A DNA stretch of 64,000 nt from NCBI GenBank assembly GCA_016193485.1, contig JACPRZ010000043.1:96944-160943 (forward strand). The letters are read 5' to 3'. The position numbers and the translations under genes are program-made. This DNA comes from Bacteroidota bacterium. GTDB taxonomy: Bacteria > Bacteroidota > Bacteroidia > JACPRZ01. Positions 1 through 42,185 of the stretch are shown here, one piece after another. The notes beneath the pieces were generated by a model. That model searched no databases. It was not told where the DNA came from and was given only the letters and a program-made list of their open reading frames with translations. The stretch's first letter is position 1. Every line of letters starts with the position of its first letter.

Positions 1-57
1 TTTAAAGATTCAAACTTCCAGATACGGGCAAAGCCGAATGAGTTTAGCAATATTTAT

Positions 58-498
58 GTGGACATTAAACTTAGTAAAAAGGTATTATCAGAAATTTACA
101 TCCCTCATACCGCAATAACAAGGCACGGAGTGTTTCCTGACTATGCAATAGATAATTTTAAAACTAAAAAAACACTTTACATTGAAGTCAAAAGGCAAGA
201 TGGCTGGATAGAAGGTGGAGTGCGTTCAGATGGCAGAGAAAATGCGCATGAAAAATCTTCTAAGTTTTTTACCCCTGGTTTATTAAAAATATTACGGGCA
301 AAAGGAAATCTTGGCGAAGATGTGTTACCATTTTGGACGGTCTTTCAAGGGAATATCACCAGAGACCCTTGCCGTGTAAGAGAGATTACTTGTTGGTATG
401 ATGAATACATTGCTCACTATTATTTTTGGAGAGATTCAAAAAATCCAATCCCGTTAATGAAACACTTCAACAAACATTTAAAGCGCCTCTTGCTCTAA
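58..498 (+). CDS. putative Type II restriction endonuclease (PD-(D/E)xK-like), convergent partner of the MT-A70 methyltransferase
   Basis: ORF begins with GTG at 58; frame is open to window position 1, so the 5' end may be clipped. Candidate PD...E-x-K segment FPDYAIDN...LYIEVKRQ. Overlaps the 3' end of the methyltransferase gene (478-498). Confidence 0.35.
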   Translation: MDIKLSKKVLSEIYIPHTAITRHGVFPDYAIDNFKTKKTLYIEVKRQDGWIEGGVRSDGRENAHEKSSKFFTPGLLKILRAKGNLGEDVLPFWTVFQGNITRDPCRVREITCWYDEYIAHYYFWRDSKNPIPLMKHFNKHLKRLLL

Positions 499-1131
499 AG
501 TTTGTTCTTCGTATTCTTCTCTGACATCTAATCCCCAGACAGACCAACCTTTAGGTTTTTTACGAGCAAATAATTCAATTCGGTTTTGCGTTGGAAACAT
601 TTTTTCAATTCCTGCAAGGACTTCTTTGGGTTTTTCGCTATGCCTTCCTCTTGGACTTTTTACAAGTTGTTGAATATTTCTTGCACCTCTGGGACTTGGG
701 ATTCGTCCGCGCTTAAAAACCAAACATAATTCGCAATTAGACAATGTGTATTGCCCTGGATTATGATTCATTTTATCCCATATAAATGCAACTGTTCTGT
801 ATTCAAAATCCCATGCCTTTCCCAACTCAATAGCCTGTTCCAGGTGCGGACTTGTTGCCCACATAAATAACAGACAATCATCCTTTGCGATTTCATGAAT
901 TGGTATCTTCATGATCTCCGGAGTTTTTAAAGTAGGATACTTGAAATTTGCAGAACTGATAAAAATTTTTTTGCTTACATCAAAATTTTCAGCCCTTCCG
1001 CTTTTATCAAACTGCATTTTTCCATTGTAATCCCATGGCGGGTCGGCATAAATAATATCAAATTTTTTATCGGGCAAGTCAGGAAAGACTCGGAAGATCA
1101 TTTCTTTTAGTTCTTCTTTGCTGTTCTGCAT
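478..1131 (-). CDS. MT-A70 family N6-adenine DNA methyltransferase
   Basis: Translation contains IIYADPPWDY (DPPW catalytic motif) and LLFMWAT, typical of MT-A70-type adenine methyltransferases. Confidence 0.8.
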   Translation of the reverse strand: MQNSKEELKEMIFRVFPDLPDKKFDIIYADPPWDYNGKMQFDKSGRAENFDVSKKIFISSANFKYPTLKTPEIMKIPIHEIAKDDCLLFMWATSPHLEQAIELGKAWDFEYRTVAFIWDKMNHNPGQYTLSNCELCLVFKRGRIPSPRGARNIQQLVKSPRGRHSEKPKEVLAGIEKMFPTQNRIELFARKKPKGWSVWGLDVREEYEEQTLEQEAL

Positions 1132-1250
1132 TATAAATCGTGTAGCCGGTTAACTTACGACCATTGCCATTGTGAATCTCCAATTCAGGCGACTTCAACT
1201 CTTTGGAGAATATGTCAATTTGTATTTGTTTCATTTGCCTTGTGCTAATT

Positions 1251-1342
1251 ATATACTGATGCTGAATGATTTTGTGCTGACGCTTGGATACGGCATTCTG
1301 ACATTTATCGTCAGAACAAATCATTCAGGTCAGTATAGTATG
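1251..1342. repeat. nested palindromic element: outer hairpin ctgaatgatt/aatcattcag with an inner insert carrying gacatttatcgtc
   Basis: Inverted repeat ctgaatgatt (1262-1271) and aatcattcag (1319-1328); inner palindrome ctgacatttatcgtcag (1298-1314). A simple version of the outer hairpin recurs at 9341-9389. Confidence 0.6.
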
Positions 1343-1382
1343 CAAATATAAAATCTTTATTTTAATTACTTCTGCAGCAAAC

Positions 1383-4300
1383 TTATTTCTTCATCAACTC
1401 CTTCGCTTCGTTTACCGGTATCCTCTTTCCTTTATGGAAAGCGATGACAAACGCTTCTTTGAATCCTTTGCTTTTCATCTGGTTCTGCAGGGCGATAACA
1501 GCATCGTAATTGGTTTCACTTCCTACCGTGTATTTGTAAATCCCGCCATCCTCGTAATAACCTACACCCGTAACACCGTTGAAGTTTTCCGGGGTAAGGG
1601 ATTTAAGTTTGGTTGAGGTGGATATTTGTACTTTTAAAATTACTCCTTCGGAATATGGTATTTTTCCAGTATCGCTTTCCTCGCCAACTAATTTCACATC
1701 GCCTGCCTGCACTATGAGCATTTCCACACGCCTGTTCTTCTGCCTGCCGGCAGGAGTAGTGTTATCGGCAACAGGATATTTCTCACCGAAATATTTGAGA
1801 ACAATGCGGTCACCTGAAATTCCTTTGCTTACCAGGTACCGCTTTATCGCTTCTACCCGTTTCATTGAAAGAATAAGGTTGTATCCGTCAGGGCCGATAT
1901 TATCGGTATGGCCGCCAAGTTTTAATTTCCAGGCGGGTTTTGCAGACAGCATGGTCGCAAGGTCATTCAGGGCGCTGTACGATTCAGGGCGTATTACATC
2001 AAGCGCAATATCAAACTCCAGGTTATTGAATGCAGTGTTGAGAATATTTTTTTCATCGCTTTTCAGCACCGCTTTCACATCAGTTGCTTCAAGTAAACTC
2101 AGGTTCACGAGGTCTTCGGAAGGCAGTTTTTCATAGTGGAAATAACCGTCTTCTCCTTTAATGATTTTCCGCATCGCCTCACCCTTTGCAATTATTTTCA
2201 GTTCCCTCAGTTTTGCCGTGTCACCACCGGCAAGAAGGAAGAGAACATTTTCTTCCGGGGGAAGTTTTTCAAAAACAAAAAATCCGTCTTCATTCCGGGT
2301 ACCTATCATCAGGGTATCGCCTTCAGGGCTGATTACATAAAGTTTGACTTCCGATTCCGGCAATTTTTCAAAACGGTAATAGTTATCCGGTCCTCTCTTC
2401 GCTTTCTGGATTGATCCACCGGCAACTATGGTGATATCAGGATCATCCATCCCGGAAAGGGCAAAAAAGTAATTCGGGTGGTCGGGTAAATGTTCAAATA
2501 CGAACATGCTGTCTTCTGTCATCTCGGCAACTTCAAGAGTATCGCCTTTGGCATCTATCATATAGAGTTTTACCTTGCTTTCGGGCAGTTGCCTGTAATG
2601 GTAAAATCCGTCATCTTTCAGCACGAGCGGCACTATATTTCCTTCGCTAAGTGCGTAGATTTCATCAACTAATTTTGTGTCATCATATTTTTGAAGGTCA
2701 AAGCGGTCTTTCGGGTCCATGGGTAGTTTTTCAAATACAAAATAACCGTCCTGGCTTTGCACTACGGTGCGTACGGTGTCGCCTTTGGCTCCGATGAAAT
2801 GCAGTTTCATCGGACAACCTTTGTTGTTACGCGGGCCTGGTTCATCGGGGCACCGGTCATCTTTATCCACAATTTTATCATTGTCACGGTCGGGACATCC
2901 TCTGAGGGCGATCATTCCGGGTACGGACGGGCAATCGTCAAACTTATCAATCACTTTATCGCCATCGCTGTCGGGGCAGCCGGCAAATTCTTTGGGACCT
3001 TTTGTACTGGGGCACTCATCATCTTTATCGCGTATGCCGTCTTTATCGCGGTCGCGGTCACCGCGGCCGAAAGTGAGATTCAAACCGAACCGTACATGGG
3101 CGTTTTTTGATTTTTCCGGGAAGAAAGCACCGTAAAAATTATCAGTTACAATGTAAAACTGGAAAAATGCCAGGTTTAATGAAAGTCCGGCACCGAGGTT
3201 AAAATAACTCCTGTTAAAAATTGAATAAGAGAGCGTGCCTCCAAACCACCGGCCGAACCGGGTAAATGAAGTAACACTGAAACCCGGATAAAAATGACGT
3301 TTGAATTTTTCACCATAGAGGGAAATGGCCACATTATTTTTTTCGTTGATTTTGTAAATGCCTGTGAGGTAAATCTGCGGTGAGAGCCAGTTGGTGTATG
3401 GCTTATATGTTTTCCTGATTTTAAAGGTTCCTTCAAGCGAATCGGCAATAGGTTGAAAAACGTCAATAGTATCCGACTGCAGAGACCGGATAAAAGCGGT
3501 AACATCAACTCCTTCATATTTGAATGTTGCGCTGTCGTTGGCAAAATTGCGCACATAGTCCTTCCACCGGATAAAACCAAGGTCAATGATGGAAGCCGAA
3601 AAATCCCATTTTTCATCGAGTGTATACGTACCTCCGAGGTCAAACCCGAACCCGCGGTTTTTCATACCAAGTAAATATTTTTTTGCATCAATGGTTTCAT
3701 CGGTATCATTCATGGGACCCGAAGTATTTATCAGCCAGTCGGCATTAAAGGTGATGTCGTAGGTTCCCGTATCGGTCTGAAGAGAAAGGTCGCTTTTGGC
3801 TGTCCAGATATTGGTCATACCGTAGAGATATTTGAAACGGCCTCCGATGTTGAATTTTTCCTGGAACCTGTGCACCCAACTGAGTCCATATTCCCGGTAA
3901 TGGATGGCATCAAAACCGATATCTTTGAAGGAAGCCAGCCCGCTGGCATCATCAATAAAAGCGCCATTACCTTTCCACAGGAGTTTTACAAAATCGCGGG
4001 GGTATGTCAACCGGAGAAACACTTTTTCAGTGACATTAAGAGCGAAATAATTATTTTCTTTTACCCTGAATCCAACGGAAAGTAAATCAACCTGTGTCCC
4101 GAATGAAAGATGGTTTCTTTTGGCAAGTTTTTTAACTACATTATCCATATCAATATAGAGCGAATCGTCTCCACGGATTTTTAAAGCATCTGCAATCCGG
4201 AATCCGCTGTGACTGAATGAACCGTAAACCGAAGAAATAACAGGCAGCCCAATGTTTACCTTTGCAAACGGAAAATATGCCGGGTTGGTGTACGTGTACT

Positions 4301-4409
4301 GGGGAACGGTGTACAGGTTATGCAGTGTAAGGTCCTGCTGGGCAGATGATATCAGCGGACTGAAAAACAGAAAAAAGAAATAAAATAAAAATAAAAGACG
4401 TTTTTTCAT
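1383..4409 (-). CDS. OmpA-family outer membrane protein with thrombospondin type 3 (Asp-rich Ca-binding) repeats, OmpA-like domain and C-terminal SPOR-like domain
   Basis: Signal peptide ([25 protein letters not shown]); [17 protein letters not shown] and [17 protein letters not shown] repeats; OmpA-C-like region [28 protein letters not shown]...RRVEMLIV; four YFVFEKLP-type repeats. Confidence 0.85.
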
Positions 4410-4490
4410 CGGATATCTGGAAAAGGGAATACAAAGATAGTAATATCAGGGAGAAAGGGAGCAAGAGAGCATGTCAGAAAATAATGAGTA

Positions 4491-4676
4491 TTTGTTACTA
4501 TTCACTCCAAATTACAAATTATTATTGGTCATTGCAATTTAACTCTGTGTAACTCAGTGTACTCTGTGCTCTCTGTGTTGAAGAATTTTTCCGCCTGAGG
4601 CGGATCTGTCCTTTGGCGGATAACACAGAGTTCACTGAGATAACAGAGTTTCACAGAGGGGATGAATAGTAACGAG
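4491..4676. repeat. CACAGAG-hairpin element copy 1 with terminal inverted repeat ttgttactattcac / gtgaatagtaac
   Basis: About 130 bp identical in reverse complement to 10221-10349; contains ctctgtg/cacagag inverted repeats and a ccgcctgaggcgg hairpin; embedded mini-ORF 4471-4545 ends in PNYKLLLVIAI. Confidence 0.7.
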
Positions 4677-4696
4677 TATTTTATTAATATCGGAAG

Positions 4697-5581
4697 ATGT
4701 ATTCAAACGGTAACCGGATATTTAAGAAAAAAGACCCAAGTAACAAGCCCCAAGTCCCAAGTTCCAAGGGGTTTGTCCACGGAATTTGGTTCTTCAATGT
4801 TTCACAAAGGGAGATTGTTTTATTATCCGTTTTATTTATTATTTCAGCGATGATTATTTCGATTGAGGGTGGTGATGCTCAGAACGCTGAAAATTTCAAA
4901 GAAAAACAGATGAAATATGAACGGGTGAAGAATGCTTTCCGGGAAAAAGAGAAAACGGTAAATGAGATGCTTGCGGCAAAAAATCTCTCTGCAGTCCGGC
5001 TGGAAATTTTTGTCCGGATTTTCAAGACGGAAAAAAAGGTTGAAGTATGGGGTAAGAACCGGGAGGACTCGGTTTTTATCCCGTTAACAGATTATGATAT
5101 TTGCACATCGTCAGGTAGTGTGGGTCCTAAGCGCAAGCAAGGTGACGGGCAGGTTCCTGAGGGTTTTTACCACATCGAACGTTTTAATCCAGTAAGCAAC
5201 TTTCATCTTTCTCTTGGTATTAATTATCCTGACAAATCGGACAGAATTTTGGGCGGGGGAGGAAATTTAGGCGGGGACATATTTATTCACGGCAATTGCG
5301 TAAGCATTGGTTGTATTCCGATAACCGATGATAAGATAAAAGAACTATACATCCTTGCTGTGGAATCGCGGAACAACGGGCAGGAAAAAATTCCGGTTCA
5401 TATTTTCCCATGCCGGATGGACGGCAGTGAATTTGAAGGATTGAAAAAAGAGTATGCCACGTATAATAAACTCCTGGAATTCTGGCAAAATGTAAAGGAG
5501 GGATGGGATTATTTTGAAAACGGGAAAAAAGTACCAATAGTGTCGGTTGACGGCAGCGGAAAATACAAGTTCAGGCCTTAA
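4697..5581 (+). CDS. L,D-transpeptidase (YkuD-like) family protein
   Basis: Catalytic-type motif IFIHGNCVSIGCIPITD (His...Cys L,D-transpeptidase signature); hydrophobic N-terminal anchor. Start codon uncertain. Confidence 0.65.
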   Translation: MYSNGNRIFKKKDPSNKPQVPSSKGFVHGIWFFNVSQREIVLLSVLFIISAMIISIEGGDAQNAENFKEKQMKYERVKNAFREKEKTVNEMLAAKNLSAVRLEIFVRIFKTEKKVEVWGKNREDSVFIPLTDYDICTSSGSVGPKRKQGDGQVPEGFYHIERFNPVSNFHLSLGINYPDKSDRILGGGGNLGGDIFIHGNCVSIGCIPITDDKIKELYILAVESRNNGQEKIPVHIFPCRMDGSEFEGLKKEYATYNKLLEFWQNVKEGWDYFENGKKVPIVSVDGSGKYKFRP

Positions 5582-6522
5582 TCCGAATCCTCGCTGGTCT
5601 CTTCCCTTTTGATTTCACCCGGAATAAATTTCCCTTCCCTCAATATGTAGCGGTCTCCTTTGGAAAGAACATGTACGGTAAGATTCTGAATAGAGAGGGG
5701 GGTGCCTTCTTCAATATCAGAAATATTGGTATATTTAATATTATGTCCGTCCACGAGTATGACAAGCCCGGTGCCGAGGGTTTCGAGGTTATCGCCATTG
5801 GTTACAAGCACAGCAGTATTTTCTCCGAGCCCGATCCCTATACAGGAAGGATTACCGACAACCGCCTGCGCCAACCGGCCAAACCGTCCCCGTTTTACAA
5901 AATGAGTATCTATGATTACATCCTGTATCAGTCCCAGACCGGTTGTAATTTTCACCGATCCTTTCAATAATGCCTCGCTGGGGCTTCCTGTATAAATCAT
6001 GGTATTGGACATCGCCATTGCTCCAGCGCTGGTGCCTGCAATTACGATATGGTCATTTTTGTAACGGTATTGGAGCAATTCATGAAGTTGTGTTCCCCCC
6101 AATGTGGAACTGAGCCGCATTTGATTTCCACCGGTGAACATGATGCCATCGGCAGTTTCCAGCCGCCTGATAATATCGGGATGGTTCGCTTCTTCGCGCG
6201 AGCGTATATGCATCAGTTCAATGCGGTCGACATCAAGCCGTTTGAATGATTCTTTGTAAAGATTTCCGATTTCTTCCGGTATTGAGGAAGCGGTAGTGAT
6301 CACTTCCACATGTTCGCGTACTTCCTGTATCTCATCAATGAAACGGCTAAGAATTTCGGGTTTGAAAAATTCAAGATTTCCGGCCGGCTTAAAATTTCCT
6401 TCATGTTCAGAGCCCTTATCTTCCCTCCCCCCGATGAGAATGAGTTTTCCTACCGGTGCATCGCCATTGCCATTCCGGCCGTTACCCCATTTTTTTGAAT
6501 TTCCCTCTGAATTTCCAAACAT
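5578..6522 (-). CDS. cphB: cyanophycinase (peptidase S51)
   Basis: IMFTGGNQMRL, nucleophile motif VIAGTSAGAMAM, and IIDTHFVKRGRFGRL match the S51 cyanophycinase pattern. Confidence 0.8.
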   Translation of the reverse strand: MFGNSEGNSKKWGNGRNGNGDAPVGKLILIGGREDKGSEHEGNFKPAGNLEFFKPEILSRFIDEIQEVREHVEVITTASSIPEEIGNLYKESFKRLDVDRIELMHIRSREEANHPDIIRRLETADGIMFTGGNQMRLSSTLGGTQLHELLQYRYKNDHIVIAGTSAGAMAMSNTMIYTGSPSEALLKGSVKITTGLGLIQDVIIDTHFVKRGRFGRLAQAVVGNPSCIGIGLGENTAVLVTNGDNLETLGTGLVILVDGHNIKYTNISDIEEGTPLSIQNLTVHVLSKGDRYILREGKFIPGEIKREETSEDSD

Positions 6523-6684
6523 AAATTAAAACTAAGGCAAACGTATCATTAGTTGCGGTACAAAAACCGGAAGAAGAAGAAATTTTTTAACCGGTGATTG
6601 TTAACAATGGTTCGGTAAAAATTTACCCGAATGAATGTACCGGTATATTATGAAAAGAAACGGGGGAGAAAAAAATATCTCTTT

Positions 6685-7782
6685 TCAAATCTGCGGTTTT
6701 GTCTGGTAAAGATACCGCACGGTATCTACAAATCGCAGAGAAATTTCATAACTGCCGCGCCCGGAGGAAGCGGAACGCAGATCGGAAATATTTATGTCAT
6801 AACTGACTCCGATGGAATAGTAAGCCAACTGAAGGTGAGTTGATAAAATAACCGCATCCTTATTTCGGTAATGACCTCCGAAAGCGATGGAAGCGCCTTT
6901 CAGCCGCCCTGTATATTTTGACTCTTCTTTAAGCCGGTACCGGATCAACCCCCCCGTAAGCATTTCTGTAGCCGGTCCCTGTTGAAACCAGGCAAGGGAA
7001 GGCAGGATGGAAAGCGGGGTATTTTTTATACCGATGTTGCCGGTGGCATGCGCTGTGAATTTTCTGAATAATTTTTCATCAGGATTATTATAGAAGGAAT
7101 AATTCGGCTGATTAACATGAAACATAGCCACTCCCGCGGATAACTGCAGGTGATCATTTGCATTGATTGATTTTTCGTCCTTATCGAGATACCAGTCAAG
7201 TCCGGCTCCCACATCCGGCTGGGTGAAACTTTCATTCTGGATGGGGCTTGCAGGGGTAATTGCCGGGTTCCATTGTTTTCCGTCATACTGACTTCCCCAC
7301 TGAAGTTTTGATGCATCAATACTCCGGTTGAGCACACCGCCAAGAAGGCCGGCAGCAAATATCATTTCCTTAGTGATCATAACGTGATAAGCGAGCGAAA
7401 GGTTTGCCTGCAGGGCATGCATTGAGGCATCACCGGCATTGTCATTATACAGGGTAACACCCCAGGCAAGTCCCTGTCCGGGCGCTTTTTTGAAGAAGAA
7501 TGGGGTGCGTTTTTTATCCACATCGTCCCATTTTTTCTTGTTCATACGCATGCAATAGGATACCGAAAATGTTTTATACGGAACCGCCACACTGCGCCAT
7601 TGTTCCTTATAATTTAATTGTGCTTCCATATACCCGTTGGCTCCGGTCATGGCAGGATTCAGCAGATGAGGGGTGAAGTAATATTGGGAAAAGTGGAGGT
7701 CCTGTGCGAAAGCAAAAAGACCTGCCGCCAGGAAGTTTACGGTAATACCGGCAGTAAGTAAATAGTTGTTGTATGTTTTCAT
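6685..7782 (-). CDS. PorP/SprF family type IX secretion system membrane protein
   Basis: N-terminus AQDLHFSQYYFTPHLLNPAMTG is the PorP/SprF hallmark; beta-barrel-like composition ending in F. Confidence 0.85.
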   Translation of the reverse strand: MKTYNNYLLTAGITVNFLAAGLFAFAQDLHFSQYYFTPHLLNPAMTGANGYMEAQLNYKEQWRSVAVPYKTFSVSYCMRMNKKKWDDVDKKRTPFFFKKAPGQGLAWGVTLYNDNAGDASMHALQANLSLAYHVMITKEMIFAAGLLGGVLNRSIDASKLQWGSQYDGKQWNPAITPASPIQNESFTQPDVGAGLDWYLDKDEKSINANDHLQLSAGVAMFHVNQPNYSFYNNPDEKLFRKFTAHATGNIGIKNTPLSILPSLAWFQQGPATEMLTGGLIRYRLKEESKYTGRLKGASIAFGGHYRNKDAVILSTHLQLAYYSIGVSYDINISDLRSASSGRGSYEISLRFVDTVRYLYQTKPQI

Positions 7783-7809
7783 AGGAAGGCGGTTGGTATT
7801 AAAATCGGA

Positions 7810-8154
7810 TTATGAAATCAGGTTATTGATTATTGATGACACTTGTTCCCGTACCGAAAGATTTTCGATATAACGGGAAGGATTACCCAGGTATGGACGG
7901 ATATTTATCATGGCTTCAAAATTGATCCACTCCTCTCCTGTTTTATCCGGGAATAAATTCACACCCCACAGGTCTTCATCGCGGGAACCATCATCCATCA
8001 ATGCTTTTTCACCATCCGGATGCGTTTCAGCCCCAGCGTAAATTACCTTTCGGACAATATCCACAACCGCTTTTACCGGTTCCGGATCACCATCCCTTTC
8101 CTTATTACAATCCTTCAATTCTTGTTTTGATACAGGCGCCTTAATGAGTTTCAT
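7810..8154 (-). CDS. hypothetical protein (small acidic protein)
   Basis: Intact 114-aa ORF in a co-directional string between porP and the isoaspartyl peptidase; no motif recognised. Confidence 0.45.
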   Translation of the reverse strand: MKLIKAPVSKQELKDCNKERDGDPEPVKAVVDIVRKVIYAGAETHPDGEKALMDDGSRDEDLWGVNLFPDKTGEEWINFEAMINIRPYLGNPSRYIENLSVREQVSSIINNLIS

Positions 8155-8232
8155 AATTCTTCCCCGAGACGAAAATAAGAAAAATTATGATTCGCTATAA
8201 GACGGATACCAGGGAGGGAATGCGGATATGAA

Positions 8233-9288
8233 TTATTCCCGGTAAATAAAAACCTTTGCCTGACCATCGGTATTGATATAACCACGGTACATTCCATCCG
8301 AATTAAAAGGCATTGCAATGTTTCCGTTTTTATCAACTGCAATGAGTCCGCCTTCACCGCCCATTTTTTTCAATTTAATGTTAATAATATCCCCTGATGC
8401 CGATCCGAGAGAGGCGCCTGAATATTCCATTCTTGCGGAGACATCATAAGCGGTCACCGTGCGGATGAAATATTCCCCATGGCCGGTGCATGATACAGCG
8501 CACGTTTTATTGTTGGCGTAAGTTCCTGCTCCGATAATCGGGGAGTCACCTACCCGGCCGAATTTTTTATTGGTCATGCCACCGGTTGAAGTTCCCGCTG
8601 CAAGGTTACCGTATTTATCGAGGGCGACAGCCCCGACAGTTCCGAATTTTTTCATTTTGAATTCCATGTCAAAATTTTCCTGTATTGAACCTGAAGTATC
8701 GTCAGCGTGGTCGAGAGCCGGCTTCTCATGTTTTTTTATTTCCTGCAGTTGCCGGTAGCGGATCTCATCGTAAAAATAAGAGGTATCGACAAGTTCAATT
8801 CCATGTTCACGCGCAAATGCCTCGGCACCGCGGCCGACCATCATCACATGAGGCGACTTTTCCATTACCGCCCTTGCAGCCGTGATCGGGTTTTTAATAA
8901 TCCTGACGCTAGCCACCGCTCCGGCATTCAGTGTTTTGCCGTCCATTATTGCGGCATCCATTTCGTTTTTTCCGTCAGCCGTGAAAACCGATCCTTTGCC
9001 TGCGTTGAAAAGCGGGGAGTCCTCCATCACCCGGATTGCCGCTTCAACAGCATCCATGCCTGTGCCGCCTTTTTTCAGAATGGAATACCCTGCCATCAGC
9101 GCCTCGGTCATTTTATCCTTGTACGCTTTTTCTTTTTCAGGGGTCATGTTTTTTTTCAGGATTGTACCTGCTCCGCCATGAATTACCAATACAATTGTGT
9201 CCATCTTACCTTGATTTGATGTTGGTTGTCCCGAAATTTGAGAAAAGAATACAAATGCGAGGGGGATTAAAAACACCAGAGATTTCAT
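8233..9288 (-). CDS. iaaA: isoaspartyl peptidase / L-asparaginase (Ntn-hydrolase, plant-type asparaginase family), secreted
   Basis: Signal peptide; VIHGGAG; autoprocessing-site motif GTVGAVALD; GHGEYFIR. Confidence 0.85.
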   Translation of the reverse strand: MKSLVFLIPLAFVFFSQISGQPTSNQGKMDTIVLVIHGGAGTILKKNMTPEKEKAYKDKMTEALMAGYSILKKGGTGMDAVEAAIRVMEDSPLFNAGKGSVFTADGKNEMDAAIMDGKTLNAGAVASVRIIKNPITAARAVMEKSPHVMMVGRGAEAFAREHGIELVDTSYFYDEIRYRQLQEIKKHEKPALDHADDTSGSIQENFDMEFKMKKFGTVGAVALDKYGNLAAGTSTGGMTNKKFGRVGDSPIIGAGTYANNKTCAVSCTGHGEYFIRTVTAYDVSARMEYSGASLGSASGDIINIKLKKMGGEGGLIAVDKNGNIAMPFNSDGMYRGYINTDGQAKVFIYRE

Positions 9289-9340
9289 CCATAGGGTTTG
9301 AAACGCAAACGTAAGTAAAATTCAATTATACAGGAATATT

Positions 9341-9389
9341 ATACTAACGCTGAATGATTATGCACAATCATTCAGGTCAGCATATAGTG
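9341..9389. repeat. palindromic hairpin ctgaatgatt-atgcac-aatcattcag (simple form of the 1251-1342 element)
   Basis: Shares the outer inverted repeat and the gtcag(c/t)atatagt tail with the element at 1251-1342; lies downstream of recO. Confidence 0.6.
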
Positions 9390-9417
9390 ATGAATTTGAT
9401 TTTGCATACTTGCAAAA

Positions 9418-10140
9418 TCAAATTCCGTCAGTATACATCAATTCCAGTGACCGGATGCGGTGCATCCCCGGAAGATGTATGCGATAGTAAAGAACCAGTT
9501 TGCCGAGAAGTTCTTTTGCCATATCCGGGAAGATCATTTCTTTTGTCGGAGAATCAGATGTTTTCCCGATAACAGAGGACAAAATGCGTGATAATGGAGG
9601 ATGAATGAAATCGGGATGGCCGGCAAATGGTGTAAATTTTCCGTTACGCAGATCAAAATATTCCGAATGGGTGGAAAAATTATTCTGAGGAAAAAATCCA
9701 AGGTAACGGGAGAGTTGAATCAGGAATAAAAGGCAGAAATCACACGTAATTATTGGCGCATCATCCAACTGGTGTGTTGTCTGAACAAGGAATCCGAACA
9801 AATCCGGATTGGCCTCTTCTTCCTTTACTGCCCGCAGTATTGTTTCGGCAATAAAAAATGCAGCGCTTCTCTTATCAGGATCAAATGGAATGGAATGGAA
9901 TGGCTTTTCCGCCTCCGCTTCTTTAATCCGTTGGACATCCCTTGTCGGGCGGTGATAAACTTCCATTTTCATCAGCGACAGAGGGCGGGTTAAATAATTT
10001 CTCAATGGCTTTTTGGTTCCCTTCAATCCCTGAGAAATATATGATACCAGTCCGAAATTTTCAGTATAAATTTTAACGATAATGGCTGAATCGGAGTAGG
10101 GAATATGATGAAGGACGATGCCGCGGGTTTTGGTTAACAT
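9418..10140 (-). CDS. recO: DNA repair protein RecO
   Basis: N-terminus MLTKTRGIVLHHIPYSDSAIIVKIYTE is the typical RecO OB-fold start; length 240 aa. Confidence 0.8.
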   Translation of the reverse strand: MLTKTRGIVLHHIPYSDSAIIVKIYTENFGLVSYISQGLKGTKKPLRNYLTRPLSLMKMEVYHRPTRDVQRIKEAEAEKPFHSIPFDPDKRSAAFFIAETILRAVKEEEANPDLFGFLVQTTHQLDDAPIITCDFCLLFLIQLSRYLGFFPQNNFSTHSEYFDLRNGKFTPFAGHPDFIHPPLSRILSSVIGKTSDSPTKEMIFPDMAKELLGKLVLYYRIHLPGMHRIRSLELMYTDGI

Positions 10141-10220
10141 GGAAAAAATAGGGCTTTAATTAGTTCCCGTGTAAAATTGATATTTCTGATTGATGGTAAA
10201 ATTTACGTAAATATAAATTT

Positions 10221-10349
10221 TTTGTTACTATTCACCCCCTCTGTGAAACTCTGTTATCTCAGTGAACTCTGTGTTAAAAATTCTTCAACACAGAGAGCAC
10301 AGAGTACACTGAGTTACACAGAGTTAAATTGCAATGACCAATAATAATT
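10221..10349. repeat. CACAGAG-hairpin element copy 2 (inverted relative to copy 1); supplies the last 11 codons and stop of the 10324-12684 gene
   Basis: Reverse complement of 10266-10349 is identical to 4507-4590; ends with gtgaatagtaacaa. Confidence 0.7.
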
Positions 10350-12684
10350 TGTAATTTGGGGTAATGGTTTCGCTGCCGTCAAGGTTGGAACAAAAGATGA
10401 GATATACACCTGTGCTTGCTTTGCGGCCGGTGAAATTTTTTCCATCCCATATCGCCTGGCCTCCATCGGCTATGGTTTCAAAGATCAACCCCCCGCTGAT
10501 GTCGGTGATTTTTACCCGGGCATTGGCAACGAGTCCGTTGATGGCGATGGGTCCTTCATAATCCTCACGGATGGGATTGGGATAGACAAAAACATCAGCG
10601 AAACCGGTACCGCCCATGGTGGCTGTAGAACGATAGGAAACAATTCCCTGTGTAGTGCCGAAAAAAATTTCTCCCTCGGCCTGGTTAATTGCAATTGAAG
10701 TGATCTCGTCTGAAGGCAGAGGGCTGTTTGAAGATGTAAAATGGTGAATTTCCTGCGTTCCGTCAGGCGATACGAGAAAAACGCCTGCGCTCCGGGTTCC
10801 GATCCATTTACGGTTTGCCCCGTCAACCGCCATAGCAGTCACTTCTTCAAATTCGAGCAGGTATTGCCAATAGCCATCCTTGAAAACAAGGATCTGCTGT
10901 GCGTCAAAGATATCGCTGTCAAATACCATCCACGGAGTATAAAATACGGCAATGCCTTTTGATGTTCCTATCCAGATGTCACCGGTCAGGTCGGCAACAA
11001 TGCAGTTCAGGTAATTTGTCGGCAGATCTCCGTAACCCACACCGGTTGTCAGGTAGCGTGATCGGTCATCGGTTTCATCAGTGACAGTACCATTTTCATC
11101 AAATGCAAAAATTCCGAATCCCCCTATGATAACCCATTTGATATTATTGGAATCAACTGTAATATCAAGAACGGTTTTACCGGGAGATCCTTTTAGCGGA
11201 AAGGATTTCCAATCCCCGGATGTATCCATTACGCAAAGCGGTCTGGTAACATTAAAATTCGTGACCCACAAACGGTGGTTTCGGTCAAATACCATTGACG
11301 GTATGCGCACATATCCCTTATAAGGTATTTCAAGTTGCAATACACCGCCTGTGGTTTCTTCATCCCATTTATTGGTCAGCACTTTATTACGGAATTCCAG
11401 TACTCCGGAACCCCATGCACCGGCAAAAACCCTTTCGGAGTTCTTCGGATCAATAAGAACGCGGACAATATCGAATGACGAATCCACACCGGTAAAATTT
11501 ATGCGGTCCCAGTCATTATTCAGATAATAAAAAACGCCATCTCCGTTCCATGTGTTGCTCAGCTGGGGTGTAAGAGTGCCAGGCGCCACCCACAGGTTAC
11601 TTCCCGAAGCGTAAATATTCCAGGTGTTTTTTGAAAACGGACCATCGGGTACAATAATTTCATAACCCCAGTCACCCCAGTGTTTTACAAGGCCTTTTTC
11701 AATATCGGCAACCCACATGATTCCATCCTCATCAAGCAGGGCATCATAGGGAATGGGATTTTTATAAGAAAAATCAAAGCCAAATCCTGATATTGAATTA
11801 CCGGATGAATCGAAAACGGTCACTCCCCACGGATGAGTAACGATCAACTTTCCCGGAGAGTTCTGTATATTATAAGGGGGCGGCAGGGACATTTGCTCGA
11901 AATCAATAAAAACCGACCATGAATTCCCATCAAAGCGATACAATAAGTCCCACCATGTGTCTTTGAAATTTACAACCGGATACCCGTTAACCAGATCGGC
12001 CTCTGTGAACAAATAAAAAGTGTCATCCGGTAACACGGCATCATGCGGCAACCCGTTTACATCTCTTGACCACGATGCGTAGTCGGCAAGATTGGAGCCG
12101 GTATAATCCGCCCTGTAAACACCCTTATCGGTTGCAGCAATAATTGAAGTGCCGTCAATAACAACTTCATTTACATTCAAGGCGCTGCCATCGGAACCGA
12201 TGTACCATGTCTCGCTTATTTCTTTTTTTACAATGTCAACCACCACAATTCCGAAACTGCAGGACAGATAGGCGAACCTGCCGTAAAAATAAATTGAATT
12301 GATTGCTTTTTTCCCGACCATATTTTTTCTTTTAATATCGCTCAGGTTGGTAAGGGAAGTGCCGCTTACCATGTCGATATTGGTGTTGGTATAGGCAATT
12401 ACCAGCACATCGTAGGTTTTATTATACAGGATGCACGAGATGCCGATATCGGAGAGGCCAGTGACTTTTGAAAGAGTGGTTATGGAATTATCGGATTTAT
12501 CAAAATAAAAGAGTGAAGAAGTTGTTGCACAATATACTACATCACCGGCATCGGTAACCGATATTGCGCGGGTGTACGGAAGCATATCGCGCCAATAACC
12601 GATGGGAATGTCTTGGGCAAAGCCGGAGAAGCAAAACAGGAAAGAAATGAGATGAATAAAGGTCCTGACGCACGAAGCACTCAT
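10324..12684 (-). CDS. beta-propeller repeat protein with T9SS C-terminal sorting domain
   Basis: Signal peptide; repeated propeller-like segments; C-terminus VYPNPIRE...VKITDISGGLI...GVYLIF...KLLLVIAI resembles a T9SS type A sorting domain. Confidence 0.7.
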   Translation of the reverse strand: MSASCVRTFIHLISFLFCFSGFAQDIPIGYWRDMLPYTRAISVTDAGDVVYCATTSSLFYFDKSDNSITTLSKVTGLSDIGISCILYNKTYDVLVIAYTNTNIDMVSGTSLTNLSDIKRKNMVGKKAINSIYFYGRFAYLSCSFGIVVVDIVKKEISETWYIGSDGSALNVNEVVIDGTSIIAATDKGVYRADYTGSNLADYASWSRDVNGLPHDAVLPDDTFYLFTEADLVNGYPVVNFKDTWWDLLYRFDGNSWSVFIDFEQMSLPPPYNIQNSPGKLIVTHPWGVTVFDSSGNSISGFGFDFSYKNPIPYDALLDEDGIMWVADIEKGLVKHWGDWGYEIIVPDGPFSKNTWNIYASGSNLWVAPGTLTPQLSNTWNGDGVFYYLNNDWDRINFTGVDSSFDIVRVLIDPKNSERVFAGAWGSGVLEFRNKVLTNKWDEETTGGVLQLEIPYKGYVRIPSMVFDRNHRLWVTNFNVTRPLCVMDTSGDWKSFPLKGSPGKTVLDITVDSNNIKWVIIGGFGIFAFDENGTVTDETDDRSRYLTTGVGYGDLPTNYLNCIVADLTGDIWIGTSKGIAVFYTPWMVFDSDIFDAQQILVFKDGYWQYLLEFEEVTAMAVDGANRKWIGTRSAGVFLVSPDGTQEIHHFTSSNSPLPSDEITSIAINQAEGEIFFGTTQGIVSYRSTATMGGTGFADVFVYPNPIREDYEGPIAINGLVANARVKITDISGGLIFETIADGGQAIWDGKNFTGRKASTGVYLIFCSNLDGSETITPNYKLLLVIAI

Positions 12685-14516: not shown

Positions 14517-14584
14517 AGGGTGTAATGTGGCAACAAACATACGAAATTTTTTAATACGGTTTATATCTATGGCAGGGTTCACGC

Positions 14585-14690
14585 ACCAGAACTCTGCGCA
14601 ACTCTTTGTTTCCTCTGTGAACTCTGTGTTTAAAAATTTCTAACACAGAGAACACAGAGTTTTTTTCACAGAGAACCACAGAGAAAAAAA
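14585..14690. repeat. CACAGAG-hairpin element copy 3 (short form)
   Basis: ctctgtgaactctgtgtt-loop-aacacagagaacacagag plus cacagagaaccacagag; lies between the thioesterase stop and the lipoprotein start. Confidence 0.6.
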
Positions 14691-14714
14691 TTTCTGATGC
14701 GCGAAACCTGATAT

Positions 14715-15131
14715 CTATGGATTCTCAAACTCTTCCATTTTCTTCTTCCATTCATCCGGTATGTGAATGGTTTTTTTTGATTTGTAGTTATATGCCACAA
14801 CAGCAGTCATCCCCGAAGCCGCTTCTTCGCCTGTTTGGACTTTTTCTATCCGGTAGGAGAGATCAAAACTTTTATTGCCGAAACGCGAGCAGCGGGTGTA
14901 AACGAACAATTCTTCATCGGTAAGGAAGACAGGACTTTTAAAATCCACTTCAGCGCGGGCTATGATAATGCCGGTTTCGGACCAATCAATTTCTTTTCCA
15001 ACAACGTCATTGAAATAGTGAATGCGGGCAAGTTCCATGTAGGTCAAAAAAACCGCATGGTTCACATGGCCGATTAGGTCAATATCACCGAACCTGATCT
15101 GGATTTTTATCTGATGGCGGAAATTATTCAT
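14715..15131 (-). CDS. acyl-CoA thioesterase (hotdog fold, YbgC/4HBT family)
   Basis: IRFGDIDLIGHVNHAVFLTYMELAR matches the 4HBT thioesterase core; 4-nt overlap with the upstream phosphatase gene. Confidence 0.8.
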   Translation of the reverse strand: MNNFRHQIKIQIRFGDIDLIGHVNHAVFLTYMELARIHYFNDVVGKEIDWSETGIIIARAEVDFKSPVFLTDEELFVYTRCSRFGNKSFDLSYRIEKVQTGEEAASGMTAVVAYNYKSKKTIHIPDEWKKKMEEFENP

Positions 15132-24224: not shown

Positions 24225-26465
24225 TTAACCGATAATTTTCTGCACCAGATTGTCTATGTTTTTCAATTCAGATGCAAGATTGTTTTTAATGGCAACCCGC
24301 AATAGACCTAAGTAAATTGCAGTTAGTTCTTTTTGCGGTGGGTTGTTCTTTAAATATTTTGCCGTTTTGTCGTGTGCCTCTTTGCTAAGTTTTGCCAAAC
24401 GCAAATGTGTTTCATTTTCTTTGTCAAACTTTGGGTAATACATGTCAAGAATTTTTTTATGAACATCTCTTGCACCGAATAAACCTTTTGTCTGGAAATC
24501 TTTCATTAAAAGGTTTGGGGAAGTTGCATTGAGAATAGCAGTCAGATAATATGCTTCGTTTGAACTGTTGGTAACAAATGAATATCCTTTGCTTTCAACA
24601 ATAAATTCCAAATCAAAGTCCTTTCTTTTTACTACAGTTGCGTTTGCATTTTTTGCAGAAGAATTGTAGATCACTAAATAAGGCGCGTTAATATGTTGTT
24701 CAGTTAATCCTCTTTGAAAATCAAGACGGTCATTGCTTGACATGTTTTTTGATTTTGCAGTTTTTTGCAAATCCCAAATTCTTTCAGCATTTTTAAACCA
24801 TTTTGAAGCATGTAAATATCCTTCGCTTCTTAATTCATCTGCCAAGTAGATTTTGATTTCCTTTTTATTTTCATTTTGATTATATTCAACGGTAATAGGA
24901 AGAACAACTAAATCGGGTTTGAATAACGCAAAAGGTAAAATACTTTTTGATAGTGCGGTGCGGAAAAGAAAACGGCTTTCAATTTGACCAGTGAAATCAA
25001 GTCCCTTCCAAGGTTTTTTTGCGACTGCCTGAATGGAATCAGAAGTTTTTATGTTAATAATTCTACCTTCCCAATCAGGCGGATATTCTTGTGTGAGTTG
25101 AATAAAATAAAATGTGCGCGGGACAATAGTAGCGCCTTGTTTGAATAATTTTTTATATGGATTTATGTTGGTTTGTTTCTTTGATTTACGCGGTGAAAAT
25201 GCTGATGACTTTCCCTGTTTTACATAAAACCAATTTTCACTTTTTTCAACAAGATTCGGCATTGCTGATTTAAGATTGCAATTGTGTGAAGGTACATTTC
25301 CACTGAAGCTTATTCCACCGATACCGGTAGCAGGCAATGATTTTTTCCCGTTTGTTTTTTCAGCAAATAAGACACCGCTCGGAATACGGAATAAAGGGGC
25401 GACTTTATTTAAATCCCAAATATTTGTAAGGCGAAATCCTTTTGCTTTTCCGCTTCTCGTATTATCGTGATGGTCTGCGCTGAAAAAACTACGCGGTAAA
25501 ACAAAAGCAATTTTCCCGCTATCATTTAAAAAATAATTGGCACAATGGGATAAAAATATTGCGGCAATTTCAAGGTGCGGGAAGTTTGCTTTTTTGTCGG
25601 GTTTTACAAGATAGATTTCAGCAAGTTTATTTAGTATGTTCTGATATTCTTCGTTCCTGATTGAACTGTATGTGAACCAGGGAGGATTGCCTATGATGTA
25701 ATCAAATTTTCCATGCAAAAAATAGGGTTTGTAAATATTTTGCAAAATGAATTTCCAAATGCTGTCTCTGCCTTTTTCTTTTACAGATTTCAAGCCAAGA
25801 TATATTTTGTAAAATCCATTTGTAATATTGCCATTAAATCCGTTCTTCGGGAATTTTTTACATAAAATATTTTCAAAAGTTTTTTCATCTTCGGCTTTGG
25901 TATGCAATGTTTGATCTGCCAATTCTTCGCACAATTCCAAACCCTCATCAAATAATTCAATTTCTTCCAACACTTGTGTATTGAGTAAAAATACTTCTTT
26001 GTCAATTTTTAATTTGAATTCGCTGCCGAATAAACTTCCAACTCCATCGGGGGCTAATAGCGTGTTTGCAAGGATAATATTTATGTGAATAGGTTTTTTA
26101 GATTTTACAATTTCTTTTCCCAATGAAAGAAGCATTGTTGTTTTTGCAATCTGTACGGAAAGGGGATGAATGTCTATTCCGAAAATATGTTCATTGAGTT
26201 GTTCGGCAGAAGTCCCCGGATGATTTTTTTTTATCCGGTGAATGGCAGCGCGGAGAAACGAACCGCTTCCGCAAGCAGGGTCAAGGATTTTGTCAGTGGG
26301 TTTAAAATTGAATTCTTTTACAATTCTTTCGCATAACCAGTCGGGCGTATAATACTCGCCTAATGCGTGGCGCGTGTCCAAATCAATTAATTCCTGGTAA
26401 CCAGAAGAAAAAATCGTTGTCAACAAAATTGCGGATGTTGTATTTATGAAAAACAGTGCCGTCAA
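24225..26465 (-). CDS. N6-adenine DNA methyltransferase domain plus putative target-recognition region of a Type IIG (MmeI-like) restriction-modification enzyme; C-terminal part of a split gene
   Basis: SAM-binding motif ILDPACGSGSFL and catalytic motif YIIGNPPWFTYS (gamma-class N6-adenine MTase); about 450 aa C-terminal extension; overlaps the upstream ORF by 83 bp in another frame. Confidence 0.75.
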   Translation of the reverse strand: MTALFFINTTSAILLTTIFSSGYQELIDLDTRHALGEYYTPDWLCERIVKEFNFKPTDKILDPACGSGSFLRAAIHRIKKNHPGTSAEQLNEHIFGIDIHPLSVQIAKTTMLLSLGKEIVKSKKPIHINIILANTLLAPDGVGSLFGSEFKLKIDKEVFLLNTQVLEEIELFDEGLELCEELADQTLHTKAEDEKTFENILCKKFPKNGFNGNITNGFYKIYLGLKSVKEKGRDSIWKFILQNIYKPYFLHGKFDYIIGNPPWFTYSSIRNEEYQNILNKLAEIYLVKPDKKANFPHLEIAAIFLSHCANYFLNDSGKIAFVLPRSFFSADHHDNTRSGKAKGFRLTNIWDLNKVAPLFRIPSGVLFAEKTNGKKSLPATGIGGISFSGNVPSHNCNLKSAMPNLVEKSENWFYVKQGKSSAFSPRKSKKQTNINPYKKLFKQGATIVPRTFYFIQLTQEYPPDWEGRIINIKTSDSIQAVAKKPWKGLDFTGQIESRFLFRTALSKSILPFALFKPDLVVLPITVEYNQNENKKEIKIYLADELRSEGYLHASKWFKNAERIWDLQKTAKSKNMSSNDRLDFQRGLTEQHINAPYLVIYNSSAKNANATVVKRKDFDLEFIVESKGYSFVTNSSNEAYYLTAILNATSPNLLMKDFQTKGLFGARDVHKKILDMYYPKFDKENETHLRLAKLSKEAHDKTAKYLKNNPPQKELTAIYLGLLRVAIKNNLASELKNIDNLVQKIIG

Positions 26466-28285: not shown

Positions 28286-29581
28286 TTAAATTTCACCTAA
28301 AACACCATTATAGAAAAGTTCAACTAAATCGAATGGTTTAATAGCAATTATTTTTTTATTATTCACTGTAATTTCCTCACCCTCAACAGTACCCATATTG
28401 ACAAGGGGTTTAATTGCGTCATTTAAGTTTGTAACAAGTGTAATAAAATCTTTTTCTTTCAAATGGAAATTATAAACGGAATCGGGCCGTTGTGAGAATT
28501 CCCGAATTACGGATGGGCTGTGGCTGGTAAAAATAAACTGTGTTTTTTTTGAATTATCAGATGTATCTCTTAACCAATTAAGAAATTCATGAAGATTTTT
28601 TTGATTTATACCATTTTCTATTTCTTCAATCATAATCAATGCGGGAGGTTTGCGAATAGAGCAAAGGAGGGCAATTGCTGCAGCTCTAACTAACCCATCA
28701 GATATTTTATCAGGGTCATAGTAAGGGAAGTTTGAACCACCCATATCAAATTGCCATTTTAAACCATTTTCCTTTAAAACGAAGTTATTGAAATTTTTAA
28801 CGAACCTTTTAAGGTAACCAATAAATCGACTAAAAGTTTCTTGATCCTGCTCTTTAATAAAACAGAGTAATTCCAGAAGGTTTCCCCCTTCCTTACCGAT
28901 TGCGCTTGGTGGATATGGAAAGACATTATTTGTTTTAAAATTACCTAAAAAATCTTTTTTATAACTCGGTACTAGTTTACCTCTAATATAGGAGCCGGAA
29001 AATGCATCTCCTTTTAAAAAGGACGGTTGAAAATTATAATAATAAAAAGTTGCAAGATCGTGGAAAAATAAATTAACTATTTCTTTTTCCCGGAAATGGT
29101 TATTAGATTCATATATTTTTTTTCTTAAAAGTAATTTGGAAGAATTTATATCAAAGCCATTTTCAAATGTTATGTTATTATCAGGAAATAAAAGGGTTAA
29201 TTTCTCGGTGCTTAAAATTAAGCGATCATCTTTTATATTAGGAAAAATTGAGAGGTTATATTCTATATTGTAATTATCTTTACTCCATATGCATCGAAAA
29301 CTAATTGGTTCACCAATTTTGCACATTGAATGTTTATTTGAATTGTATTCGTATGAACGAAGGTCAGAGAAATAATATTCATCTTGACTTTCATGATCAG
29401 TTTCATGAATTGGTTCTTTAACAGGATTATATCGACTTATCAATCTAGAAAAAAAATGCAGACCCCTAAGGAAATTACTTTTACCAGAGTTATTAGAGCC
29501 GATAATTAAAGACAAATCAATGGGTTCAATGGCAGTACATTTATGGGTTCTGTAATTTTTTAGTTCTAATAATTTAAACAT
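28286..29581 (-). CDS. ABC-type (AAA_15/AAA_21, OLD/SMC-like) ATPase, defence-associated family
   Basis: Walker A LIIGSNNSGKSN near N-terminus; D-loop/Walker B ALIMIEEIENGI; H-loop FIFTSHSP; 431 aa; AT-rich. Confidence 0.75.
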   Translation of the reverse strand: MFKLLELKNYRTHKCTAIEPIDLSLIIGSNNSGKSNFLRGLHFFSRLISRYNPVKEPIHETDHESQDEYYFSDLRSYEYNSNKHSMCKIGEPISFRCIWSKDNYNIEYNLSIFPNIKDDRLILSTEKLTLLFPDNNITFENGFDINSSKLLLRKKIYESNNHFREKEIVNLFFHDLATFYYYNFQPSFLKGDAFSGSYIRGKLVPSYKKDFLGNFKTNNVFPYPPSAIGKEGGNLLELLCFIKEQDQETFSRFIGYLKRFVKNFNNFVLKENGLKWQFDMGGSNFPYYDPDKISDGLVRAAAIALLCSIRKPPALIMIEEIENGINQKNLHEFLNWLRDTSDNSKKTQFIFTSHSPSVIREFSQRPDSVYNFHLKEKDFITLVTNLNDAIKPLVNMGTVEGEEITVNNKKIIAIKPFDLVELFYNGVLGEI

Positions 29582-42151: not shown

Positions 42152-42185
42152 TTATTGTAGAATTTTAAACAACATCAGTTTAAAA

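Follow-up and report, generated by a model that had tools for sequence, protein, structure and literature searches.

Separate insertions of a miniature inverted-repeat element in a Bacteroidota genome and its probable fusion to porZ by a later deletion

[quoted passage not shown] Here we describe two inverted repeats in a 64,000-nt stretch of a Bacteroidota bacterium metagenome-assembled genome (MAG; GenBank assembly GCA_016193485.1, contig JACPRZ010000043.1, positions 96,944 to 160,943 of the forward strand), the whole of which is referred to below as the window. The repeats are very probably copies of a small non-autonomous transposon of the MITE type that were inserted separately, and porZ, which encodes a type IX secretion system (T9SS) component, was fused to the second copy by a later deletion. 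The window element resembles Rickettsia palindromic elements, QMITE1, ERIC/RU and Neisseria Correia elements in its size of ∼150 bp, its hairpin, its lack of a transposase, its terminal repeats and target-site duplications, its mostly intergenic placement and an internal open reading frame (ORF) that can join a host protein. It differs from those fusion MITEs in that a later 74-bp deletion, rather than insertion into the gene, joined the gene to a MITE lying downstream. Correia elements duplicate the dinucleotide TA at their target site, whereas the window element has the terminal repeat GTTACTATTCAC and duplicates 8 bp. A MITE-gene fusion is in itself of a known kind; the present one is modestly unusual in its origin by secondary deletion and in that both alleles were sampled together. 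The general understanding of MITEs is unchanged by it, and we regard the locus as an instructive case of fairly ordinary mobile-DNA tinkering.

Porphyromonas gingivalis, also of the Bacteroidota, carries the elements BrickBuilt, MITEPgRS/MITE464, MITE239 and MITE700, which are likewise intergenic, hold short internal repeats between terminal repeats and possibly affect transcription (PMC4596501). The ends of the P. gingivalis MITEs (GAGACC..., ACGTCAG...) match the IS5 family and are unrelated to GTTACTATTCAC, and in their interior units of 23 or 41 nt are repeated directly in tandem (PMC4596501), whereas the interior of the window element is an inverted hairpin.

Structure and target sites of the two copies

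Self-comparison of the window detected an exact match between positions 4507–4590 (84 nt) and the reverse complement of 10276–10359, and a second block (4622–4673 versus 10224–10275) in which 51 of 52 positions are identical. The two blocks are separated by 31 extra nt in copy 1 (4591–4621, within the hairpin loop) that are absent from copy 2, and the copies differ in all by two substitutions and this one indel. A 37-nt core pattern, searched with up to three mismatches, occurred at only two sites in the window and at none in shuffled sequence. The claim of a preliminary description that near-identical inverted copies bracket a gene block was thus borne out well above chance (84 nt exact plus 51/52), although the coordinates it gave for copy 2 (10266–10349) were 10 nt off and read correctly 10276–10359.

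The basic form of the element, as reconstructed, is 149 bp long. Its ends are formed by the 12-bp terminal inverted repeat GTTACTATTCAC; between them lie a left segment of 37 nt and then a long, imperfect hairpin whose arms are strings of ∼10-nt CTCTGTG/CACAGAG units. Copy 1 is complete (4494–4673, plus strand) and reaches 180 bp through the 31-nt loop surplus; it is flanked by a divergent DUF5723/OmpA gene, which starts at 4409 on the minus strand, and by YkuD, which starts at 4697. Only 23 nt separate the end of copy 1 from the ATG of YkuD, whose promoter must accordingly be situated inside the MITE or on its far side. Its left terminal inverted repeat is GTTACTATTCAC (4494–4505, plus strand) and its right one ATGAATAGTAAC (4662–4673, plus strand), with one mismatch and with an A at 4662 that is private to copy 1. 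An identical 8-mer, GAGTATTT, abuts both ends of the element as left (4486–4493) and right (4674–4681) target-site duplication. A terminal inverted repeat had been noticed on copy 1 previously and put at 14 bp; the repeat stands at 12 bp, and the two added T's belong to the direct repeat GAGTATTT. The hairpin core of copy 1 spans 4543–4658 (plus strand), with arms at 4543–4579 and 4622–4658 and a loop that includes 4591–4621, and the predicted fold of the copy is a long hairpin of -76.1 kcal/mol (z = -8.25), as compared to -52.9 kcal/mol (z = -7.45) for copy 2. The loop insert (4591–4621; CCGCCTGAGGCGGATCTGTCCTTTGGCGGAT) has a GC-rich stem of its own, a T-rich run after it and a 7-nt direct repeat, GGCGGAT.

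Copy 2 (10224–10362, minus strand) lies between porZ and recO and is truncated: of 149 bp, 139 remain, the 10 nt at the outer end of the left terminal repeat being absent. On the minus strand, its right end reads GTGAATAGTAAC (10224–10235), followed by the right target-site duplication AAAAAATT (10216–10223). The partner of this duplication is deleted in the window and present at positions 3562–3569 of contig L001, from the Logan assembly of run SRR12113425, where the intact left end of the element is also visible (3570–3596). The terminal repeats GTTACTATTCAC and GTGAATAGTAAC form a perfect pair in copy 2, with the left end taken from L001, and the pair matches at 11 of 12 positions in copy 1. 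At 149 and 180 bp, the element falls within the size range of MITEs (about 50–1000 bp, no transposase gene). Its six frames are all broken by stops or hold short ORFs only; no transposase ORF lies inside the 149- or 180-bp form, and none was found among the long ORFs of the window. No match was obtained when peptides from the six frames were compared with 5.8 billion proteins, nor when the window MITE and a Lachnospiraceae MITE were searched by blastn against PLSDB plasmids, and an Rfam search of the whole window returned nothing at gathering thresholds, the only weak match being a chance snoRNA (E = 0.028).

The target-site duplications of the two copies differ, being GAGTATTT at copy 1 and AAAAAATT at copy 2 (one half of the latter coming from L001). 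The possession of separate 8-bp duplications indicates that copies 1 and 2 are independent transpositions. The site of copy 1 is occupied also in the Logan contigs L002, L003 and L250.

Ends of the same type were found widely in metagenomes. A scan with the pattern GTTACTATTCAY-N(120-150)-RTGAATAGTAAC matched at least 120 metagenome loci, which represent at least 107 distinct insertion sites. Among the matches listed, the 8-bp flanking duplication was exact in 62 of the 119 elements with both flanks and had one mismatch in a further 24 of 119, while a shifted control gave 0 elements with fewer than three mismatches. Members of this family carry the same 12-nt terminal repeats at both ends and A/T-rich 8-bp duplications that often end in T, and they measure 144–174 bp. 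The CTCTGTG/CACAGAG core was present in 0 of the 119 family elements listed, and none of these had internal similarity to the window element. Since the ends are the same and no internal sequence is shared, the window element in our view represents a new subfamily; the two are presumably recognized by related transposases. The "mobile MITE-like element" suggested by the preliminary description is accordingly supported by its terminal inverted repeats, by the separate 8-bp duplications and by the recurrence of this signature elsewhere.

The family (loci L130–L249) came from human gut, woodrat gut, rumen/fermentation and possibly termite gut metagenomes. In three loci checked (L153, L184 and L200), the flanking housekeeping proteins are recorded from [Clostridium] symbiosum, Blautia/Oliverpabstia and Lachnospiraceae, so that all three loci belong to Lachnospiraceae; the host phylum, Bacillota, differs from that of the Bacteroidota MAG. 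Many members carry a sub-terminal hairpin, GTTACTATTCACAGCC...GGCTGTGATAGTAAC, which the window element lacks. Solitary terminal repeats in related loci are degenerate MITEs. Within the searchable literature, the terminal-repeat strings occurred in no relevant paper, and "CACAGAG" retrieved primer noise only.

When the 120 loci were screened for terminal-repeat pairs 600–3500 bp apart with a flanking duplication, L134 was the only composite found, and no transposase cargo was detected. In this locus (positions 4298–7762; JGI Ga0183011_10394), two inverted MITE copies, 93% identical and with GTTACTATTCAC ends, bracket a gene for a 786-aa tyrosine-decarboxylase-like protein dependent on pyridoxal phosphate (PLP), and a single 8-bp duplication, CATGGATG, surrounds the whole 3,465-bp unit. 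With its MITE boundaries and its metabolic cargo gene, the L134 unit is a composite transposon. The combination of GTTACTATTCAC and an 8-bp duplication thus defines a large family, common in gut metagenomes and able to form composite transposons with cargo.

The existence of such a unit in the same terminal-repeat family raises the alternative that the window copies and the genes between them moved as one 5.9-kb composite transposon, and the layout is indeed that of composite transposons in so far as two inverted mobile copies bracket ordinary genes. However, each window copy has its own duplication on both of its sides, the outer flanks are unlike (GAGTATTT versus AATTTTTT, plus strand), and the position of RecO beside porZ is ancestral synteny. 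We consider movement as a unit extremely unlikely.

Fusion of porZ to copy 2

The ORF at 10324–12684 (minus strand) is porZ (PF21544, the N-terminal β-propeller family, at 1.9e-41; 403 homologues, one of which is named PorZ by NCBI). PorZ proteins carry a C-terminal signal domain that is not cleaved off. The 786-aa product of the window gene is identical to P0121, which is NCBI MBI2968029.1 (locus tag HYY40_09475, on a contig of 292,441 nt), and has a chimeric C terminus. The last 12 codons (TPNYKLLLVIAI) and the stop TAA lie inside copy 2 (10324–10362, minus strand), and the hairpin core begins at the next base. That copy 2 encodes the C terminus of this gene had been recognized previously, with 11 rather than 12 codons assigned to it; the mini-ORF at 4471–4545 does terminate, within copy 1, with the same codons, as was also stated then.

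Comparison with orthologous gene ends, as proposed earlier, identified the window tail as the odd one out. All 119 of the more distant homologues listed, as well as the 99%-identical protein P0001, close with K-[ILV]-[LMV]-x-x-x, the typical terminus among the more distant homologues being VTKILFIN. P0001 ends in ...SETIVAKIMIIN, its native last residues being VAKIMIIN, versus ...SETITPNYKLLLVIAI in the window protein. P0001 is encoded by L001, positions 1–3505 of which are 100% identical to window positions 13867–10363 and which diverges thereafter. Past this junction, L001 reads on through the eight native final codons with their TAA, then a spacer of 37 nt, then AAAAAATT and finally GTTACTATTCACCCCAAATTACAAATT, at which point the contig stops; the MITE is intact there, 45 nt downstream of the stop codon of porZ. 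One and the same 8-mer, AAAAAATT, stands to the left of the MITE in L001 and to the right of copy 2 in the window, as expected of a single insertion event with an 8-bp duplication. Relative to L001, the window lacks 74 bp (L001 3506–3579; junction at 10362/10363, minus strand), comprising the last eight porZ codons and stop, the spacer of 37 nt, the target-site duplication on the left and 10 nt from the terminal repeat. The junction in the fused allele reads ...GAAACCATT|ACCCCAAATTAC....

These data revise the earlier proposals for the origin of the shared tail. An element that "can replace gene 3' ends" has the mechanism wrong, since the MITE lies intact beyond the native stop in L001 and a secondary 74-bp deletion made the fusion. 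The other proposal, a duplication of the porZ 3' end plus terminator that gave rise to copy 1 (or the reverse), has in its favor that the 11 codons and stop closing the window porZ recur in copy 1. The native end is a different one, however, namely VAKIMIIN in the near-identical relative, and it is conserved among all 119 of the more distant homologues listed; moreover, the similarity between copies stops at the terminal repeat and not within porZ, each copy has an 8-bp duplication of its own, and the same ends and duplication length define a large family. Such a segmental duplication is therefore exceedingly improbable. Homology of the left 37 nt of the MITE to the native porZ end was also considered and rejected, the resemblance at the DNA level being AT-rich and out of frame.

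Our favored sequence of events, two MITE insertions and a later deletion, would begin with a transposase encoded elsewhere that recognized the terminal repeats and inserted the element by an 8-bp staggered cut. Of two independent insertions, one placed a copy upstream of YkuD and the other placed an oppositely oriented copy between porZ and recO, 45 nt past the porZ stop; this step is shown by the distinct target-site duplications. Subsequently, in the lineage or sub-population of the window, the 74-bp deletion removed the end of porZ, the spacer, one duplication and the first nucleotides of the MITE, a step documented by comparison with the otherwise identical contig L001. After the deletion, the porZ reading frame runs on through 12 MITE codons to the TAA directly before the hairpin. 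The fused allele may be tolerated because lysine and hydrophobic residues were kept, which is the weakest step of the scheme, and the inverted layout around the 5.5-kb block is a by-product of the two insertions and no functional unit. Fusion by this two-step route, with insertion downstream and a small deletion later, is unlike the usual in-frame insertion, and its alleles apparently come from one population.

Three runs yielded Logan contigs that are 100% identical to the window over 3.5 kb and 4.8 kb and that break inside the MITE. The 100% identical flanks in the MAG and in the Logan contigs argue that both porZ alleles derive from essentially one population. The starts of L002 and L003 lie exactly 30 nt ahead of the private A at 4662, the distance to be expected from a k = 31 graph. 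In L250 and L001, the ends fall on MITE positions 26 and 27, respectively, which is 16–17 nt earlier than a two-copy model predicts; on the assumption that Logan used k = 31, these early breaks hint at more MITE copies in that metagenome.

The last strand of the T9SS secretion signal domain contains a conserved lysine and is needed for secretion; a C-terminal extension is tolerated, while the substitution of histidines for the terminal residues in PorZ or PorU abolishes function (PMC11285876, section 2.2). In a MAFFT alignment, the MITE-encoded K779 falls in the invariant lysine column and is followed by LLLVIAI. AlphaFold2 models of the native and chimeric proteins were produced from matched alignments. 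The window PorZ model had a predicted local distance difference test score (pLDDT) of 87.7. In native PorZ (P0001), the last strand was predicted at residues 773–780, with a pLDDT of 94 for residues 771–780 and 82 from residue 781 to the C terminus; in the chimeric PorZ of the window, the last strand was predicted at residues 779–782, with corresponding values of 69 and 53. Judged from these models, the fused PorZ may be impaired. The MITE-coded tail may nevertheless be tolerated, in that a lysine followed by hydrophobic residues resembles the native final β-strand.

Several observations weigh against the proposed history or parts of it. The last strand of the chimera is predicted to be shorter, and with lower confidence, than that of the native protein, and a second frame of the AT-rich MITE segment also encodes a lysine and hydrophobic residues, so the likeness of the tail to the native strand may be due to chance. 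There is no clean microhomology at the deletion junction (ACCATT versus ACTATTC, with a C also lost). The fused allele comes from one assembly, the NCBI MAG, while an independent assembly with identical flanks is unfused, and for copy 2 the left end, together with its duplication, is seen only in that other assembly, as a Logan contig. Only two copies of the element are visible within the 64-kb window, and neither an autonomous partner nor a transposase family was identified in the window or in the 120 related loci. The exact left-end 21-mer GTTACTATTCACNCCAAATTAC had 0 matches in GTDB representative genomes and JGI metagenomes, from which we conclude that the genome of the window and its close relatives are not in these collections.

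Some of these points bear on whether the fusion junction is real. In one alternative, the junction is an artefact of MAG assembly or curation, and the actual genome has a native porZ end with an intact MITE downstream. L001, with its 100% identical flanks, has exactly that arrangement, the fused protein is on record from the NCBI MAG only, and the junction lies at a strong-hairpin repeat of a kind that is fragile in assembly, the Logan contigs all breaking there. However, junction k-mers are not something that a De Bruijn assembler makes up, the reading frame is kept across the junction with a plausible tail, and polymorphism within a population accounts equally well for both assemblies. An exact-protein look-up in sister assemblies found neither RecO nor the fused PorZ on record; a fused allele in Logan data would give only a truncated gene call, beyond the reach of the look-up, and its absence there is uninformative. 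On balance, an artefact appears unlikely. For annotation, the odd C terminus of MBI2968029.1, an essential secretion component, would then represent a MITE chimera and no lineage-specific signal sequence, and gene ends that stem from repeats in this way need to be recognized before secretion-signal motifs are mined.

The hairpin core as a separate motif

A third element of 138 bp (14573–14710, plus strand) is related to copies 1 and 2 and distinct from them: it has the CTCTGTG/CACAGAG core, and its ends differ. The ends form a 19-bp terminal repeat, CAGGGTTCACGCACCAGAA, matching at 16 of 19 positions, and are flanked by a 10-bp target-site duplication, ATATCTATGG (14563–14572 and 14711–14720). 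The element is inserted exactly at the stop codon of a thioesterase gene (14715–15131), and the duplication regenerates the stop. Hairpins of CTCTGTG/CACAGAG type were also found elsewhere (L010–L129) in Acidobacteriota, with many in one Pyrinomonadaceae MAG, and in Planctomycetota, Bacteroidota, Chlamydiota and other phyla. They resemble the window core over 70–95 nt at 72–84% identity, and 136 of 139 lack a terminal repeat and duplication. As far as sequence comparison allows, the hairpin core is thus a separate, widespread motif. Some of these hairpins occur in tandem arrays (e.g., L014 6196–6476, L045 40–190 and L077 2796–3011).

Hairpins of this sort recall repetitive extragenic palindromic (REP) sequences and bacterial interspersed mosaic elements (BIMEs), which are extragenic palindromic hairpins, sometimes in arrays; those of L014, L045 and L077 are REP-like and without duplications. 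REPs and BIMEs are built on a short palindrome of 20–40 nt and have an associated Y1 transposase (REP-associated tyrosine transposase, RAYT), and to our knowledge REPs make no target-site duplications. The window copies differ in having terminal repeats and duplications and a length of 149–180 bp, and the search of the window for a RAYT gene found none. It is very unlikely that the window elements are REP/BIME palindromes spread by RAYT, or conserved terminator hairpins, instead of cut-and-paste MITEs. Such an identity would fit a core that is a long hairpin found in many genomes, for the most part without terminal repeats and duplications, and the position of copy 2 directly after a stop codon. 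It would not fit the exact 8-bp duplications of the copies and the 10-bp duplication of the third element, or the finding of no Y1 transposase (PF01797) among the window ORFs and no match in Rfam. A terminator role for the hairpin was rejected, as no U-tract follows it and the consensus scan was blank at copy 2; the sole terminator-like match was the small CCGCC/GGCGG stem in the copy 1 loop insert, on the plus strand.

A more far-reaching interpretation, to which we give only modest credence and which we consider doubtful as a whole, joins the fate of the PorZ tail to that of the hairpin. The MITE peptide would replace the last strand of the T9SS signal in an allele that is functional and is kept in a natural groundwater population beside the native allele. 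The CTCTGTG/CACAGAG hairpin, for its part, would act as a portable module, captured independently by two unrelated MITE backbones in one genome and spread as a REP-like non-transposon repeat across several phyla. If the fused porZ were functional, it would amount to a natural experiment on the sequence requirements of the T9SS signal.

The genes between the copies

The 5.5-kb block between the copies (4682–10215) holds bystander genes and no composite-transposon cargo. The genes are YkuD (4697–5581, plus strand), a peptidase S51 gene (5578–6522, minus), PorP/SprF (6685–7782, minus), DUF5674 (7810–8154, minus), Asparaginase_2 (8233–9288, minus) and RecO (9418–10140, minus), in agreement with the gene list of the preliminary description. 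The order porZ-recO is conserved in distant relatives (PorZ 44–46% identical), in which the spacer lacks such an element. Judging by these gene neighborhoods, the porZ-recO adjacency is ancestral and the MITE insertion lineage-specific.

It had been suggested that the inverted copies could mediate inversion of the intervening segment. The copies, 5.5 kb apart, share uninterrupted identical runs of 84 nt and 40 nt in inverted orientation, which are long enough for homologous recombination, and occasional RecA-mediated inversion between the 84-nt stretches would be possible. Inversion is therefore mechanistically conceivable; support for its occurrence was not obtained, as the gene order of the window is the ancestral one, this is the only orientation seen, and no recombinase or invertase domain was found in or beside the block. 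A stronger form of this idea, in which the block from YkuD to RecO is a functional invertible segment that flips as a regulatory or phase-variation switch, is very improbable: the separate target-site duplications indicate two insertions, and the genes are housekeeping genes with no promoter logic for an inversion to switch.

Within the block, a perfect 15-bp palindrome (GAATTTGATTTTGCA / TGCAAAATCAAATTC, 9392–9425) lies between the isoaspartyl-peptidase gene and recO, and L002 ends within it. In a distant relative (L004 4196–4654 and L005 3493–3951), a Y1 transposase gene of the IS200/RAYT type is located ∼5.3 kb upstream of porZ, in a locus without CTCTGTG hairpins. Elsewhere in the window, defence-type genes (58–1131, 24225–26465 and 28286–29581) encode a MunI-like restriction enzyme alongside an MT-A70 methyltransferase, an Eco57I/MmeI-like methyltransferase and an AbiEii-like AAA ATPase. 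Two adjoining ORFs at 41342–42791 encode proteins with retropepsin-like aspartyl protease domains (RVP; Asp_protease_2 with DUF5678), which look odd for a bacterial chromosome.

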